Sequence record: ON528717
Reading direction: 5' to 3' (one strand)
DNA length: 39,180 bases
Source of the DNA: Shigella phage ESh3
In this document: positions 4,732-39,180 of the stretch, piece after piece
Position numbering within the stretch: the stretch's first letter is position 1
How the letters are laid out: the number at the start of each line of letters is the position of its first letter
The notes under the pieces: model-generated
What the model was told of the DNA's origin: nothing
Databases searched by the model: none
The model's input: only the letters and a program-made list of their open reading frames with translations
Made by a program: the position numbers and the translations under genes

Positions 4732-5145
4732 ATGAACGACATAAAGCGATTCAACGATAAGACCGAACCATGTGGTGACTGTTTGCGTTGGATTGGTAGC
4801 ATCCAGCCTAATGGCTACGGACGGTTTCGCCTGCATGGTAAGCCTATGTATGCCCATAGGGCTTCGTACATTCTGTTCAACGGTGAGTTGAATAATGGTG
4901 ATGTAGTCCTACACTCCTGTGACAATAGATGGTGTGTAAATCCGGCACACCTAATCAAGGGCACACAGGCAGATAACCTTATAGACATGGCTATCAAAGG
5001 CCGTGGCGCTAGAAAGATAACTAATGAGCAGGTCGAGATGATACGTATGGACCCTCGCTCCGGCAGGGAGCTAGCAAGGGTACTTAATGTAGCTGCTTCG
5101 ACAATAAGCCACATACGAAACGGTAAACTGAGGAAATATATATGA
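4732..5145 (+). CDS. free-standing HNH homing-type endonuclease (zinc-finger HNH with C-terminal helix-turn-helix)
   Basis: 137 aa; Cys14/Cys17 (PCGDCLRW), NGYGR, HR, HSCDNRWCVNPAHL HNH core, C-terminal LARVLNVAASTISHIRNGK; stop overlaps ligase start (ATGA). Confidence 0.85.
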   Translation: MNDIKRFNDKTEPCGDCLRWIGSIQPNGYGRFRLHGKPMYAHRASYILFNGELNNGDVVLHSCDNRWCVNPAHLIKGTQADNLIDMAIKGRGARKITNEQVEMIRMDPRSGRELARVLNVAASTISHIRNGKLRKYI

Positions 5146-7807: not shown

Positions 7808-8506
7808 ATGGCTAAGAAGATTTTCACCTCTGCGCTTGGCACTGCTGAACCTTACGCTTACCTCTCTAAGCCGGACTACGGTAACGAAGAGCGTGGCTTT
7901 GGGAACCCTCGCGGTGTCTACAAAGTTGACCTGACTATTCCCAACAAAGACCCGCGCTGCCAGCGTATGGTCGATGAAATCGTGAAGTGCCACGAAGAGG
8001 CTTATGCTGCTGCCGTTGAGGAATACGAAGCTAACCCGCCTGCTGTAGCTCGTGGTAAGAAACCGCTGAAACCATATGAAGGCGACATGCCGTTCTTCGA
8101 TAACGGTGACGGCACGACTACCTTTAAGTTCAAATGCTACGCGTCTTTCCAAGACAAGAAAACCAAAGAGACCAAGCACATCAATCTGGTTGTGGTTGAC
8201 TCCAAGGGCAAGAAGATGGAAGACGTTCCTATTATCGGTGGTGGCTCTAAACTGAAAGTCAAATACTCTCTGGTTCCCTACAAGTGGAACACGGCTGTAG
8301 GTGCGAGCGTTAAGCTGCAACTGGAATCCGTGATGCTGGTCGAACTGGCTACCTTTGGCGGTGGTGAAGACGATTGGGCTGACGAAGTTGAAGAGAACGG
8401 CTATGTTGCCTCTGGTTCTGCCAAAGCGAGCAAACCACGCGACGAAGAAAGCTGGGACGAAGACGACGAAGGCTCTTACGAAGAAGACTCAGACGGAGAC
8501 TTCTAA
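7808..8506 (+). CDS. 2.5: gene 2.5 single-stranded DNA-binding protein
   Basis: 232 aa MAKKIFTSALGTAEPYAYLSKPDYGNEERGFGNPRGVYKVDL..., acidic C-terminal tail ending ...EEDSDGDF. Confidence 0.95.
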   Translation: MAKKIFTSALGTAEPYAYLSKPDYGNEERGFGNPRGVYKVDLTIPNKDPRCQRMVDEIVKCHEEAYAAAVEEYEANPPAVARGKKPLKPYEGDMPFFDNGDGTTTFKFKCYASFQDKKTKETKHINLVVVDSKGKKMEDVPIIGGGSKLKVKYSLVPYKWNTAVGASVKLQLESVMLVELATFGGGEDDWADEVEENGYVASGSAKASKPRDEESWDEDDEGSYEEDSDGDF

Positions 8507-8962
8507 GTGGCTGGCGCATACGCTGCGCGTGGTATCAGAAAGGTCGGGACATTCCGTTCCGGCCTAGAAGATAAGGTCTCTAAGCAGCTAGAGGGTAAGG
8601 GCATTAAGTTCGACTATGAACTGTGGAAAATCCCTTACGTTGTCCCTGCGAGCAACCATGTGTATACTCCAGACTTCCTGCTGCCTAACGGAATCTTTAT
8701 TGAAACCAAAGGTTTATGGGAGAGTGACGACCGAAAGAAACACTTACTGATTCGCGAACAGTTTCCCGAACTGGACATCCGTCTGGTGTTCTCAAGCTCA
8801 CGCACTAAGCTGTATAAAGGGTCTCCTACCAGTTATGGTGAGTGGTGTGAGAAGCACGGTATTCTGTTTGCTGACAAATTAATTCCTGTAGAATGGCTCA
8901 AAGAACCCAAAAAGGAGGTGCCATTTGACAAGCTGAAACAATCGAAGGGAGGAAAGAAATAA
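8507..8962 (+). CDS. 3: gene 3 endonuclease I (Holliday-junction resolvase), apparent GTG start
   Basis: 151 aa MAGAYAARGIRKVGTFRSGLEDKVSKQLEGKGIKF...PDFLLPNGIFIETKGLWESDDRKKHLLIREQ; starts directly after 2.5 stop. Confidence 0.9.
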   Translation: MAGAYAARGIRKVGTFRSGLEDKVSKQLEGKGIKFDYELWKIPYVVPASNHVYTPDFLLPNGIFIETKGLWESDDRKKHLLIREQFPELDIRLVFSSSRTKLYKGSPTSYGEWCEKHGILFADKLIPVEWLKEPKKEVPFDKLKQSKGGKK

Positions 8963-9473: not shown

Positions 9474-11223
<1,750 letters not shown>

Positions 11224-34319: not shown

Positions 34320-34763
34320 ATGCTGCAATTTTTACGTAAGCTGGTCCCTTGGGTTCTCGCTGGGATGCTATTCGGATGGGGATGGCAACTTGGGGCAGAC
34401 TCAATGGACGCTAAGTGGAAACAGGAGGTACAGAATGAGTACGTTAAGAGAGTTGAGGCTACGAAGAGCACTCAAAGAGCAATCGATGCGGTATCGGCTA
34501 AGTATCAAGAAGACCTTGCCGCGCTGGAAGGGAGCACTGATAGGATTATTTCTGATTTGCGTAGCGACAATAAGCGGTTGCGCGTCAGAGTCAAACCTAC
34601 CGGAACCTCCGATGGTCAGTGTGGATTCGAGCCTGATGGTCGAGCCGAACTTGACGACCGAGATGCTAAGCGTATTCTCGCAGTGACCCAGAAGGGTGAC
34701 GCATGGATTCGTGCGTTACAGGATACTATTCGTGAACTGCAACGTAAGCAGGAAATCAAGTAA
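34320..34763 (+). CDS. 18.5: gene 18.5 Rz-like inner-membrane spanin
   Basis: 147 aa, N-terminal TM (LVPWVLAGMLFGWGW) then coiled-coil periplasmic region. Confidence 0.9.
   Translation: MLQFLRKLVPWVLAGMLFGWGWQLGADSMDAKWKQEVQNEYVKRVEATKSTQRAIDAVSAKYQEDLAALEGSTDRIISDLRSDNKRLRVRVKPTGTSDGQCGFEPDGRAELDDRDAKRILAVTQKGDAWIRALQDTIRELQRKQEIK
34435..34686 (+). CDS. 18.7: gene 18.7 Rz1-like outer-membrane lipoprotein spanin, embedded in +1 frame of 18.5
   Basis: 83 aa MSTLRELRLRRALKEQSMRYRLSIKKTLPRWKGALIGLFLICVATISGCASES..., lipobox ISGC, Pro-rich; RBS aggagg. Confidence 0.8.
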   Translation: MSTLRELRLRRALKEQSMRYRLSIKKTLPRWKGALIGLFLICVATISGCASESNLPEPPMVSVDSSLMVEPNLTTEMLSVFSQ

Positions 34764-34772
34764 GGAGGTAAC

Positions 34773-36533
34773 GTGTCTACTCAATCCAACCGTAATGCGC
34801 TCGTAGTGGCGCAACTGAAAGGAGACTTCGTGGCGTTCCTGTTCGTCTTATGGAAGGCGTTAAACCTTCCGGTGCCAACTAAGTGTCAGATTGACATGGC
34901 TAAGGTACTGGCGAATGGGGATAACAAGAAGTTCATCCTACAGGCTTTCCGTGGTATCGGTAAGTCGTTCATCACATGTGCGTTCGTTGTGTGGTCCCTA
35001 TGGAGAGACCCTCAGTTGAAGATACTCATTGTATCAGCCTCTAAGGAACGTGCAGACGCTAACTCCATCTTCATTAAGAACATCATTGACCTGCTGCCAT
35101 TCCTCGCTGAGCTAAAGCCGAGGCCCGGTCAGCGTGACTCTGTAATCAGCTTTGATGTAGGCCCAGCCAATCCTGACCACTCTCCTAGTGTGAAATCAGT
35201 AGGTATCACTGGTCAGTTAACTGGTAGCCGTGCTGACATTATCATTGCGGATGACGTGGAGATTCCGTCTAACAGTGCGACTATGGGTGCCCGTGAGAAG
35301 CTCTGGACTCTTGTTCAGGAGTTCGCTGCGTTACTTAAGCCGCTGCCCACCTCTCGCGTTATCTACCTCGGTACACCTCAGACAGAGATGACTCTCTATA
35401 AGGAACTTGAGGATAACCGTGGGTACACAACCATAATCTGGCCTGCTCTGTACCCAAGGACTCATGAAGAGAACCTCTATTACTCACAGCGTCTTGCTCC
35501 TATGCTACGCGCTGAGTACGATGAGAACCCTGAGGCACTTGCTGGTACTCCTACAGACCCTGTGCGCTTTGACCGTGATGACCTCCGTGAGCGTGAATTG
35601 GAATACGGTAAGGCTGGCTTCACACTACAGTTCATGCTTAACCCGAACCTGAGTGATGCCGAGAAGTACCCTCTGAGGCTCCGTGACGCTATCGTAGCGG
35701 CCTTAGACTTAGAGAAGGCCCCAATGCATTACCAGTGGCTTCCTAACCGTCAGAACATCATTGAGGACCTTCCTAACGTTGGTCTTAAGGGTGATGACCT
35801 TCATACGTACCATGATTGCTCCAACAACTCAGGTCAGTATCAACAGAAGATTCTGGTTATTGACCCTAGTGGTCGCGGTAAGGACGAAACAGGTTACGCT
35901 GTTCTGTACACCCTGAACGGCTACATCTACCTTATGGAAGCTGGAGGTTTCCGTGATGGCTACTCCGATAAGACCCTTGAGTTGCTCGCTAAGAAAGCTA
36001 AGCAATGGGGAGTCCAGACGGTTGTCTACGAGAGTAACTTCGGTGACGGTATGTTTGGTAAGGTGTTCAGTCCCATCCTTCTTAAACACCACAACTGTGC
36101 AATGGAAGAGATTCGTGCCCGTGGTATGAAAGAGATGCGTATTTGTGATACCCTTGAGCCAGTCATGCAGACTCACCGCCTTGTCATTCGTGATGAGGTC
36201 ATTAGGGCCGACTACCAGTCCGCTCGTGACGTAGACGGTAAGCATGACGTTAAATACTCACTGTTCTACCAGATGACCCGTATCACTCGTGAGAAAGGTG
36301 CTCTGGCCCATGATGACCGATTGGATGCCCTTGCGTTAGGCATTGAGTATCTCCGTGAGTCCATGCAGTTGGATTCCGTTAAGGTCGAAGGTGAAGTGCT
36401 TGCTGACTTCCTTGAGGAGCACATGATGCGTCCTACAGTGTCTGCTACCCACATCATTGAGATGTCTGTAGGAGGAGTTGATGTGTACTCCGAGGACGAT
36501 GAGGGTTACGGTACGTCTTTCATTGAGTGGTGA
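34773..36533 (+). CDS. 19: gene 19 terminase large subunit (DNA maturase B), apparent GTG start
   Basis: 586 aa [45 protein letters not shown]..., RBS aaggagg 4 nt upstream. Confidence 0.97.
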
Positions 36534-36792: not shown

Positions 36793-36942
36793 ATGTTCCG
36801 CTTATTGTTGACCTTGTTGCGGCATAGAGTCACCTACCGATTTCTTGTGGTACTTTGTGCTGCCCTTGGGTACGCATCTCTTACTGGAGACCTCAGTTCA
36901 CTGGAGTCTGCCGTTTGCTCTATACTCACTTGTAGCGATTAG
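36793..36942 (+). CDS. 19.5: gene 19.5, small hydrophobic protein
   Basis: 49 aa MFRLLLTLLRHRVTYRFLVVLCAALGYASLTGDLSSLESAVCSILTCSD; RBS aaggaggga. Confidence 0.75.
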   Translation: MFRLLLTLLRHRVTYRFLVVLCAALGYASLTGDLSSLESAVCSILTCSD

Positions 36943-37181: not shown

Positions 37182-37347
37182 TCTCACAGTGTACGGACCT
37201 AAAGTTCCCCCATAGGGGTACCTAAAGCCCAGCCAATCACCTTGAGTCAACTTTCAGTTGACCTTGAGGGTTCCCTAGGGTTGGGGTTGGTCCCTTGGGG
37301 TTTACCTTGAGTGTCTCTTCTTGTCCCTATCTGTTCAGTCTCCTAAA
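37182..37347 (+). repeat. direct terminal repeat of the linear genome (single collapsed copy); physical genome ends lie here
   Basis: Begins TCTCACAGTGTACGGACCTAAAGTTCCCCCATAGGGG and ends ..CTGTTCAGTCTCCTAAA, colinear with the recalled 160-bp T7 terminal repeat. Confidence 0.6.
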
Positions 37348-37348
37348 G

Positions 37349-37512
37349 TATCCTCCTAAAGTCACCTCCTAAAGTCATTCCTACCGTCTACAACCTAAAG
37401 ACTACACCTAAAGACCCATCGAGTCAACGCCTATCTTAAAGTATCTTCTAAAGACCATCCTAAAGACCATTCTAAAGACCATCCTAAAGACCATCCTAAA
37501 GCCTATTCCTAC
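37349..37512 (+). repeat. left-end short tandem repeat region (CCTAAAG heptamers, then a 12-bp tandem array of about 6 units)
   Basis: gtatcttctaaa gaccatcctaaa gaccattctaaa gaccatcctaaa gaccatcctaaa gcctattcctac at 37441-37512. Confidence 0.6.
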
Positions 37513-37562
37513 AGACGCCTTGTTGTTATCTATAAAGAGATAATCTTCAATCATTGTCTCTT

Positions 37563-37585
37563 TAATACGACTCACTATAAGGAGA
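37563..37585 (+). promoter_or_regulatory. phage RNAP promoter phiOL (left end)
   Basis: TAATACGACTCACTATAAGGAGA. Confidence 0.8.
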
Positions 37586-37634
37586 CTACTTAAAGATACC
37601 TTAAAAGAGAAATTAAAGAATTTTAAAAAGAGTA

Positions 37635-37663
37635 TTGACTTAAAGAGTCCTAGGGATTACTAT
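37635..37663 (+). promoter_or_regulatory. host sigma70 early promoter A1
   Basis: -35 TTGACT, 17-bp spacer, -10 TACTAT. Confidence 0.7.
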
Positions 37664-37761
37664 TCATCTCGTCAACGGGACAACGGCCTTAAAGCCACTC
37701 CCTGAGATACCGGGGTCAACCGGATAAGTAGACAGCCTGTAAGTCGCACGAAAAACAGGTA

Positions 37762-37791
37762 TTGACAACACGAAATAACATGCAGTAAGAT
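37762..37791 (+). promoter_or_regulatory. host sigma70 early promoter A2
   Basis: -35 TTGACA, 18-bp spacer, -10 TAAGAT. Confidence 0.75.
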
Positions 37792-37876
37792 ACACAACGT
37801 AGCGTCAACCGGACGCACGCAAGGTGTCTTCTAGGTGACTTAAGCGCACCACGGCACACAAAGTGAAACAAAACGG

Positions 37877-37905
37877 TTGACAACATGAAGTAAACACGGT
37901 ACGAT
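37877..37905 (+). promoter_or_regulatory. host sigma70 early promoter A3
   Basis: -35 TTGACA, 17-bp spacer, -10 TACGAT. Confidence 0.75.
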
Positions 37906-38044
37906 GTACCACAGCTACCACAGGGTAGCACATGAAACGACAGTGAGGCGCAACACTGAAAGGCGCTAGGGTCTAACGAAACCTGACCGACATGCTCTTT
38001 AACAATCTGGTAAATAGCTCTTGAGGTGCACGAATAGCGGATAA

Positions 38045-38081
38045 CTCAAGGGTATCGCAAGGTGCCCTTTATGATATTCAC
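38045..38081 (+). promoter_or_regulatory. RNase III site R0.3
   Basis: ctcaagggtatcgcaaggtgccctttatgatattcac hairpin upstream of gene 0.3. Confidence 0.5.
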
Positions 38082-38106
38082 TAATAACTGCACGAGGTAA
38101 CACAAG

Positions 38107-38448
38107 ATGGCTATGTCTAACATGACTTACAACAACGTTTTCGACCACGCTTACGAAATGCTGAAAGAAAACATCCGTTATGATGACATCCGCGACACTG
38201 ATGACATGCACGATGCTATTCATATGGCTGCCGATAGCGCAATCCCGCACTACTACGCTGATATTTTTAGCGTAATGGCAAGCGAGGGCATTGACCTTGA
38301 GTTCGAAGACTCTGGTCTTATGCCGGACACCAAGGACATAATCCGTATCCTGCAAGCTCGTATCTATGAGCAACTCACGATTGACCTCTGGGAAGACGCT
38401 GAGGACTTACTTAACGAGTACCTTGAGGAAGTCGAGGAAGAAGAGTAA
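38107..38448 (+). CDS. ocr: gene 0.3 Ocr, DNA-mimic anti-restriction protein (inhibits type I R-M; reported to inhibit BREX)
   Basis: 113 aa [77 protein letters not shown]..., acidic. Confidence 0.95.
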
Positions 38449-38603
38449 TGGCTAACAACAACACGCAATACGGTCTGACCGCTCAAACTGTACTGTTTTA
38501 TAGTGACATGGTGCGCTGTGGGTTTAACTGGTCGCTCGCAATGACACACCTTAAGGAACTGTACGAAAACAACAAGGCAATCGCTCTAGAATCTGCTGAG
38601 TGA
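38448..38603 (+). CDS. 0.4: gene 0.4 (in T7, inhibitor of FtsZ / cell division)
   Basis: 51 aa [51 protein letters not shown]; ATG overlaps ocr stop. Confidence 0.85.
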   Translation: MANNNTQYGLTAQTVLFYSDMVRCGFNWSLAMTHLKELYENNKAIALESAE

Positions 38604-38607
38604 TAGG

Positions 38608-38650
38608 CTCAAGGTCGCTCCTAACGAGTGGCCTTTATGATTATCACTTA
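38608..38650 (+). promoter_or_regulatory. RNase III-type site (R0.5), copy a of a 43-bp direct repeat
   Basis: ctcaaggtcgctcctaacgagtggcctttatgattatcactt. Confidence 0.6.
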
Positions 38651-38671
38651 ACTTGCAGTAGGACTAACATC

Positions 38672-38872
38672 ATGAGTAAACTTTTGGCAACCTCCAAAAT
38701 CAAAGGCCAATGCACTGTGACACTGCGTGAGTATTACCACGGGTCTATGGGAAGCACCTACGTTGTACGATACGGTAAACAGGTAACACATTGGGTAAAC
38801 CCGATTTTGGCGCAAGAAGAGTATCAAGCCTGTGTGATACACCAAGCAACATGTGCAGGCTGGAATGATTGA
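38672..38872 (+). CDS. 66-aa early accessory ORF of unknown function, bracketed by the duplicated R site
   Basis: MSKLLATSKIKGQCTVTLREYYHGSMGSTYVVRYGKQVTHWVNPILAQEEYQACVIHQATCAGWND; track ORF starts at 38600, ATG 38672 chosen because it follows R site copy a. Confidence 0.6.
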   Translation: MSKLLATSKIKGQCTVTLREYYHGSMGSTYVVRYGKQVTHWVNPILAQEEYQACVIHQATCAGWND

Positions 38873-38924
38873 CAACACTATTTGCACTAACTGGACATAG
38901 CCTTCGAGTCTACCCAGTGATAAA

Positions 38925-38967
38925 CTCAAGGTCGCTCCTAGCGAGTGGCCTTTATGATTATCACTTT
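38925..38967 (+). promoter_or_regulatory. RNase III-type site, copy b of the 43-bp direct repeat (42/43 identical to copy a)
   Basis: ctcaaggtcgctcctagcgagtggcctttatgattatcactt; upstream gtgata also shared with copy a. Confidence 0.6.
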
Positions 38968-38988
38968 TACTTATGGGAGTAATACACA

Positions 38989-39117
38989 ATGCTTACTATC
39001 GGTCTACTCACCGCTCTAGGTCTAGCTGTAGGCGCATCCTTTGGGAAGTCTTTGGGTGTCGCTGTAGGCGCTTACTTGGTCGCTTGTATCATCACGGGAG
39101 CACTACGCAAATGCTGA
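38989..39117 (+). CDS. 0.5: small hydrophobic membrane peptide at the gene 0.5 position
   Basis: 42 aa MLTIGLLTALGLAVGASFGKSLGVAVGAYLVACIITGALRKC; RBS gggag 9 nt upstream; Gly/Ala-rich TM-like. Confidence 0.6.
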   Translation: MLTIGLLTALGLAVGASFGKSLGVAVGAYLVACIITGALRKC

Positions 39118-39128
39118 AACAGCACGGT

Positions 39129-39180
39129 ATGAAACACTACGTTATGCCCATCCACACTTCCAACGGGGCAACTGTATGCA
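39129..39180 (+). CDS. 0.6: gene 0.6A, N-terminal part (continues at window position 1)
   Basis: ATG 39129 then MKHYVMPIHTSNGATVC, open to the end of the window and in frame with 1..107. Confidence 0.6.
   Translation, partial: MKHYVMPIHTSNGATVC

Follow-up and report, generated by a model that had tools for sequence, protein, structure and literature searches.

Non-ATG initiation codons of the terminase and endonuclease I genes in Shigella phage ESh3

The 39,180-nucleotide stretch of DNA analysed here, referred to as the window (sequence record ON528717), is a circularly permuted genome of the T7 group (Teseptimavirus) from Shigella phage ESh3. Its DNA is approximately 96% identical to that of T7, 13a and their relatives, and the T7 gene order is kept along the window, in which gene 0.7 lies at position 334, gene 19.5 at position 36793 and genes 0.3 to 0.5 at the right end. 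Two essential genes of this genome, gene 19 and gene 3, appear to begin with GTG, and a preliminary description had regarded both codons as consistent with deliberately low translation of a packaging ATPase and of a nuclease. These codons raise the question of whether they are the true starts and, if so, whether they serve to restrain expression. The searchable literature yielded neither an N-terminal peptide nor a ribosome footprint for the start of gp19 or gp3 in ESh3 or T7, and on the N-termini, expression or GTG codons of these two proteins we found genome tables and general start-codon studies only.

Here, we describe a comparative analysis of the two sites. In all likelihood both GTGs are genuine initiation codons, gene 19 probably yielding a moderate output from a weakly constrained start codon and gene 3 presumably being translated mainly through termination and reinitiation. 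The GTG starts are ordinary, already annotated T7-group biology; the modest added value lies in the reading of the gene 3 start as a coupling junction and in the changeable terminase start, both of which leave the understanding of T7 unchanged, and in the documentation of errors in public annotation.

The GTG codons at the starts of genes 19 and 3

Gene 19 (34773..36533, + strand) encodes a 586-residue protein that is identical to URY10740.1 of Shigella phage ESh3 and 99.1% identical to T7 gp19 over residues 1-586. The protein matches the Pfam families Terminase_6N (residues 60-204) and Terminase-T7_RNaseH-like (residues 363-470) as well as PDB entries 4bij and 8dgc, and its translation contains AFRGIGKS and IIIADDVE, as expected for Walker A and B motifs in a protein with ATPase and RNase H-like nuclease domains. 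By these similarities, the product is a T7-type terminase large subunit.

The + strand at 34761-34775 reads TAAGGAGGTAACGTG. This segment holds a Shine-Dalgarno (SD) sequence, TAAGGAGGT (34761..34769), with 9 nt complementary to the 3' end of 16S rRNA, followed by the GTG initiation codon (34773..34775). The spacer between AAGGAGG (34762-34768) and the GTG is the 4-nt TAAC, or 3 nt when counted from TAAGGAGGT. The sequence AAGGAGGT occurs seven times in the window, always on the + strand, against an expectation of 1.2, and seven copies were reached in 0 of 100 shuffles. The GTG is the first candidate start after an in-frame TAA, and its homolog in T7 and 13a is likewise a GTG annotated as the start. 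Because this TAA, 9 nt before the GTG, closes the open reading frame upstream, no ATG start can yield the conserved N-terminus. The TAA (34761-34763) is the stop codon of gene 18.5 (34320..34763, + strand), an Rz-like spanin gene whose product is 94% identical to T7 gp18.5 and matches Pfam Phage_lysis; it lies inside the gene 19 SD and in the gene 19 frame. In T7, gene 18.5 ends at a TAG 21 nt upstream, whereas the window has CAG at that position and its gene 18.5 continues for four more codons to the TAA within the gene 19 SD. A readthrough fusion of 18.5 and 19 was considered and rejected; the two genes share a frame in the window and in T7 but are in different frames in other lineages.

The same arrangement is found in T7 (V01146, CDS 37370..39130), in which gene 19 stands in the same place after 18.5/18.7, begins with GTG behind AAGGAGG and a 4-nt spacer, and encodes 586 residues. 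The T7 start reads AATGTG, with an out-of-frame ATG 2 nt upstream of the GTG, whereas the window reads AACGTG; motifs of the AUGUG type, as at T7 gene 19, have been studied (PMC9841429). The gene 19 GTG is thus textbook T7 annotation and already known. The 40 codons that follow it behave as coding sequence. Synonymous and nonsynonymous codon differences in codons 2-41 number 5:0 against T7 and, for relatives at a greater distance, 10:4, 14:4 and 20:8, a mostly synonymous pattern that resembles that of codons 42-200. Sister lineages carry ATG or TTG, behind a strong SD, at the position of the window's GTG or within a few codons of it.

It is very improbable that gene 19 truly starts downstream, at GTG codon 12 or 20 or at ATG codon 42, with the upstream GTG and its SD being fortuitous. 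In-frame GTGs before the first ATG are present at codons 12, 20 and 34, and the first in-frame ATG (Met42, 34896..34898) is the site that a truncating gene caller would pick. The preliminary description held that the GTG at 34773 is the only in-frame initiation codon behind a strong ribosome binding site. Its coordinates, AAGGAGG motif and 4-nt spacer are correct, but exclusivity needs qualification, as the GTG at codon 20 (34830..34832) has AAAGGAG (34818-34824) at a 5-nt spacing, making it a possible though unlikely start. The AAAGGAG is a by-product of conserved Lys-Gly-Asp codons, and in predicted SD pairing codon 1 (-13.5 kcal/mol) exceeds both codon 12 (-0.3 kcal/mol) and codon 20 (-8.7 kcal/mol). 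Inspection by eye of the bases just upstream of Met42 (actaagtgtcagattgac) revealed no SD, and the 545-residue product of a Met42 start was not found in the protein collection. A downstream start has the RefSeq record of phage C5 in its favor, which places the start at codon 12; against it stand the curated T7, 13a and K11 records, all of which take the first codon, together with the conservation of residues 2-41 and the start sites of the other lineages. On these comparisons, we have high confidence that the GTG at 34773 is the genuine gene 19 initiation codon.

Gene 3 (8507..8962, + strand) encodes a protein of 151 residues, and its stop codon overlaps the ATG of gene 3.5 (TAATG). The product matches Pfam Phage_endo_I (PF05367) over profile positions 1-148 of 149 (E 6.7e-82) and PDB entries 2pfj, 1m0d and 1fzr, the alignment with 2pfj covering residues 4-151. 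Residues E21, D56, E66 and K68 have identical counterparts in the alignments with 2pfj/1m0d, 2pfj itself carrying K67A; these would correspond to E20, D55, E65 and K67, which we take to be the catalytic residues of T7 endonuclease I. By homology, the product is a phage endonuclease I (PF05367, T7 gp3). The N-terminus is conserved in relatives, and the exact protein sequence, which carries the 13a accession ACF15899.1, is present in 281 contigs. The listing of the gene 3 cluster also contained 151-residue gp3.5 lysozymes, and cluster names were not used as evidence.

The start of gene 3 lies at a stop-start junction. The sequence TAAGTG at 8504-8509 comprises the TAA of gene 2.5 and the GTG of gene 3 (8507..8509, + strand) with a 0-nt gap, a junction that is shared with 14 related contigs and 13a. 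Gene 2.5 (7808..8506, + strand) encodes the single-stranded DNA-binding protein (SSB; 97% identity to T7 gp2.5, Pfam SBB_T7), and its TAA (8504-8506) is in the gene 3 frame. This TAA closes the gene 3 reading frame immediately before the GTG. The frame contains no in-frame ATG over its whole length, and the next in-frame GTG, codon 52, lies downstream of the conserved catalytic Glu21. Within the acidic-tail codons of gene 2.5, 8 nt before the GTG, is a weak SD-like GGAG (8495..8498, + strand). The hexamer TAAGTG is not enriched in the window (17 found, 22 expected), and the junction therefore takes its meaning from the reading frames and the homology around it. The preliminary description had placed the endonuclease I start at this GTG, directly after the SSB stop codon, and the placement is correct: 13a annotates the same GTG, so that in 13a-type phages the start is known. 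We are highly confident, given this reading frame and its homologs, that the GTG at 8507 is the genuine gene 3 initiation codon.

Strength of the initiation regions and the gene 2.5/3 junction

The 46 gene starts in the window were scored for the predicted SD duplex and for the predicted fold of the initiation region. With an SD duplex of -13.5 kcal/mol, gene 19 ranked third of 46 (median -9.75), and its initiation region folds at -7.9 kcal/mol (z +1.37), 183 of 200 shuffles folding at least as well. On these predictions, the start codon is the only feature in which gene 19 departs from an efficient initiation site. The SD duplex of gene 3, at -6.6 kcal/mol, ranked 39th of 46, and the predicted fold of its initiation region (-19.3 kcal/mol), the most stable of the 46, pairs the GTG and part of the GGAG in a hairpin. 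A hairpin selected to hide the gene 3 start was considered and rejected, its z being only -0.6 against same-composition shuffles; the fold is kept as weak evidence.

Published tests in E. coli indicate the price of a non-AUG start. GUG and UUG give 10-100% of the AUG level (10.1101/063800); the ratio for UUG:GUG:AUG is 1:2:6 at cyaA, lacZ expression drops 2-3 fold, and highly expressed genes, such as tufA, also use non-AUG starts (PMC5499595). At gene 19, we propose that ribosomes initiate de novo at the GTG, possibly joined by others that have only just finished translating 18.5. The codon would cost a few-fold in initiation relative to ATG, but with an SD this strong and so little structure the output would be moderate rather than minimal. 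Coupling of gene 18.5 to gene 19 is suggested by the 9-nt distance between stop and start and is possible.

Gene 3, in contrast, would be translated mainly by ribosomes that terminate on gene 2.5 and then reinitiate. Under such coupling, synthesis of a toxic nuclease would follow that of the SSB at a small, constant fraction. The suggestion that both GTGs reflect deliberately low translation is accordingly divided in its fortunes: it is plausible for gene 3, with its GTG, weak SD, stable fold and abutment on the gene 2.5 stop, and it finds no support for gene 19, for which both the initiation region and the start codons of relatives, described below, point the other way.

Comparison with T7 and other relatives also bears on the gene 3 start. 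Phage 13a (NC_011045, CDS 8442..8897) shows no substantial difference from the window: its gene 3 GTG adjoins the gene 2.5 TAA, the product has 151 residues, and gene 2.8 is lacking. T7 has an identical gacttcTAAGTGG junction after gene 2.5, but there the GTG opens gene 2.8, a 139-residue HNH endonuclease gene (Pfam HNH_3) occupying 400 nt that are absent from the window. T7 gene 3 begins 400 nt further on, with an ATG at 10257 behind its own SD, AAGGGAGG. Comparison with the start codons of T7, which the preliminary description had suggested as a check, thus recovers the same GTG for gene 19 (V01146, 37370) but not for gene 3.

Among 45 related loci, the gene 2.5/3 junction is almost always of the stop-start type, with TAATG as the usual form, TAAATG seen once, and TAAGTG in the T7 group. 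Of the 45, none of which has an inserted reading frame at this place, 42 show a gap of -1 to +2 nt between the two genes. When a reading frame is inserted after gene 2.5 (T7 gene 2.8 and the insertions at loci L107 and L117), it takes over the junction, leaving gene 3 to start at an ATG with a separate SD. The end of gene 2.5 would serve whichever reading frame adjoins it, which in T7 is the inserted HNH gene 2.8. Since the junction is conserved among relatives and the T7 GTG is used by 2.8, the gene 3 GTG of the window would be a lineage variant of a coupling junction rather than a T7 feature. Compared with the usual TAATG- or ATGA-type coupling junctions, the 2.5/3 junction of the window has a weaker GTG at 0-nt spacing in place of an overlapping ATG; the 3/3.5 junction of the window (TAATG) shares the stop-start coupling anatomy. 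A small comparative gain of this analysis is that gene 3 appears tied to the SSB gene by a conserved junction that is open to takeover by inserted homing-endonuclease genes.

A changeable terminase start codon among T7 relatives

A further comparative gain concerns the terminase start, which varies much more than the starts of neighboring genes. In 80 related viral contigs, gene 19 starts with TTG in 37, ATG in 29 and GTG in 14, so that 51 of 80 (64%) are non-ATG, as compared to 21 of 405 starts (5.2%) for genes 14, 15, 16, 17, 17.5, 18 and 18.5 in this same set. The contigs are not independent of one another in phylogeny, and the starts were called from SD energy, a rule that errs in some cases and leaves some neighbor-gene calls doubtful. 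At least 10 switches between ATG and non-ATG were placed on the gp19 tree, as compared to 0-5 for neighboring genes. When the 90 distinct sequences of at least 70% identity were grouped at 95% amino acid identity, the resulting 30 clusters comprised 18 with ATG, 7 with GTG and 5 with TTG (12 of 30 non-ATG), distant environmental homologs (<70% identity), which have ATG starts but weak SDs and unreliable calls, being left out of these lineage counts. By these comparisons, T7 relatives show unusual variation in the start codon of gene 19, and the frequent switching among ATG, GTG and TTG suggests that its identity is weakly constrained. Even within the identical T7-group context, 12 contigs have GTG and one has ATG; the latter reads AAGGAGGTAAT-ATG-TCTACTCAA and is otherwise the same as the window's gene 19 start. 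Compensation of a weak start codon by a stronger SD, of the kind described in PMC5622118, was also considered and rejected: at the lineage level the SD duplex is -12.4 kcal/mol for ATG and -12.7 kcal/mol for non-ATG starts (p=0.36). The two groups of lineages thus do not differ in SD strength, and the comparison demonstrates neither compensation nor buffering.

Nearly all TTG starts share bases with the stop codon of 18.5 in the form TTGA. In Klebsiella phage K11 and Escherichia phage K1F (Przondovirus and Kayfunavirus), gene 19 opens at the homologous position, as in the window, with a non-ATG codon that follows a very strong SD; this codon, however, is a TTG overlapping the stop of 18.5, whereas the window has GTG and no overlap. 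The curated K11 record annotates the TTG. This geometry raises the idea that non-ATG starts are partly forced by the spanin overlap: in the arrangement NTGA, the base N both opens the start codon and fills the third position of the final codon of 18.5. TTG is found in 32 of 35 sequences with the 4-nt overlap, and in 24 of these 32 the last 18.5 codon is CAT (His), in which only T or C keeps the residue; the three ATG overlaps have AAA or CAA. Eight TTG cases nevertheless end in a 4-fold degenerate codon (CCT, CGT), and the overlap gives no account of the window or the T7 group, in which 9 nt separate the stop from the start. We consider such forcing unlikely, even as a partial cause.

The same eight sequences lend some weight to adaptive down-tuning, in which selection would have favored a non-ATG codon as a limit on terminase dosage, for instance because a surplus of nuclease/ATPase does harm or because host defence proteins sense the terminase. 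In each of them a synonymous change in 18.5 would make ATG, yet TTG is kept, and it is likewise kept in 27 distinct Przondovirus-type sequences although the upstream context varies. The contrast between 64% non-ATG at gene 19 and 5% at neighboring genes of the same genomes is in keeping with this explanation, as is the presence of a T7-like terminase large subunit in PDB 8dgc/9o4e, which we take to be terminase complexes with an Avs defence sensor. In phage pK3-24, moreover, the terminase gene is the only TTG-start reading frame among 45 (PMC11533715). Yet the gene 19 SD is among the strongest of the window and its initiation region is open, unlike a gene whose expression is minimized; ATG prevails in 18 of 30 lineages (approximately 60%) and occurs naturally as a point variant in identical context; and the terminases of SP6 and phiKMV, which belong to other subfamilies, start with ATG. 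Adaptive down-tuning thus seems rather unlikely to us, and we prefer a weakly constrained codon at a site of moderate output. A broader and more speculative extension, which we also doubt, holds that in Studiervirinae, where gene 19 is non-AUG in approximately 40% of lineages as compared to approximately 5% for neighboring late genes and its start invariably follows a strong SD, the terminase start would be a recurrently re-set expression dial, with selection rather than drift capping dosage or tuning it to the host in response to nuclease toxicity or to delay terminase-sensing defence.

Non-ATG starts in public records

The practical value of these observations lies in annotation, where non-ATG starts in T7-like phages have led to real errors in public records. 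The warning that gene callers may truncate these genes is borne out by three records. In Escherichia phage HZ2R8 (MG832642), the 455-nt interval of gene 3 is without a CDS, and gene 3 is missing from its RefSeq copy as well. The RefSeq terminase of phage C5 starts at GTG codon 12 and, at 575 residues, is 11 residues short. The RefSeq terminase of K1F, likewise 11 residues short, starts at an internal ATG; 11 codons before it there is a TTG preceded by GAAGGAGGTGA. For curators, the SD and the stop-start junction are the landmarks on which to anchor gene 3 and gene 19. The ESh3 record itself calls the full 586-residue gene 19; it labels the product 'terminase small subunit'.

Sequence context of the gene 19 start

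The sequence at the gene 19 GTG differs between the window and T7, reading AACGTG in the window (34768-34778) and AATGTG in T7 (37365-37375). AATGTG is found at this start in most T7-group genomes, and AACGTG in the window and two contigs. The common form constitutes an AUGUG motif, in which an out-of-frame ATG would open an ORF of 11 codons; initiation in both frames at motifs of this type is documented for E. coli (PMC9841429). The upstream gene 18.5, encoding an Rz-like spanin, is four codons longer in the window, where it ends CAG GAA ATC AAG TAA (34749-34763), than in T7, where it ends at TAG. As a consequence of this extension, which is common to most T7-group relatives, the gene 18.5 stop codon falls inside the gene 19 Shine-Dalgarno sequence (34761-34769).

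Non-ATG starts in other genes and their annotation

Apart from gene 19, gene 16, which encodes an internal virion protein, stands alone among the late genes in having a non-ATG call throughout a lineage. Its apparent GTG start follows TAGGAGGT or AAGGAGGC (contigs L179, L194, L211 and L220) and occurs in T3-like phages and one related lineage. The embedded ORF 19.2 (35419-35670) retains a GTG start, as it does in T7 and 13a, whereas genes 6.3 and 17.5 begin with GTG in T7 and with ATG in the window (location given as 16030).

Non-ATG starts are linked to annotation errors in the public records of K1F, C5 and HZ2R8. An internal ATG is annotated as the terminase start of K1F (L419, NC_007456, 1998-2033), GTG codon 12 as that of phage C5 (P0003), and the GenBank record of HZ2R8 (L245, MG832642) lacks gene 3. 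No endonuclease feature appears in the record feature listings of the RefSeq copy of HZ2R8 or of HZP2. The ESh3 record labels the exact gp19 of the window 'terminase small subunit'. The listing of the gp3 protein cluster (P0018 and P0020) also included 151-aa gp3.5 lysozymes, which are unrelated to gp3 in sequence and whose inclusion appears to be an artefact of database clustering or listing.

Genome ends and an ORF between genes 1.2 and 1.3

The window (1-39180) holds a complete, circularly permuted T7-group genome, its first base inside gene 0.6 and its last in gene 0.5. The physical genome ends are therefore internal to the window, and lie between gene 19.5 (36793) and gene 0.3 (38107). 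Two short tandem arrays within 37340-37516, comprising 4.5 copies of CTAAAGACCATC (37448-37501) and 2.9 copies of a 13-nt unit (37340-37377), are situated in the presumed terminal-repeat and concatemer-junction region. A minus-strand ORF with FRMVFRMV repeats is a spurious product of these arrays.

A 137-aa ORF (4732-5145) is flanked by genes 1.2 and 1.3, a site at which T7 has no gene. Its product shares 39% identity with the products of T7 genes 2.8 and 7.7, both absent from the window at their T7 positions; of the proteins compared here, it is the T7 gene 2.8 product that matches Pfam HNH_3. The TGA stop of the ORF shares bases with the ligase ATG (ATGA).
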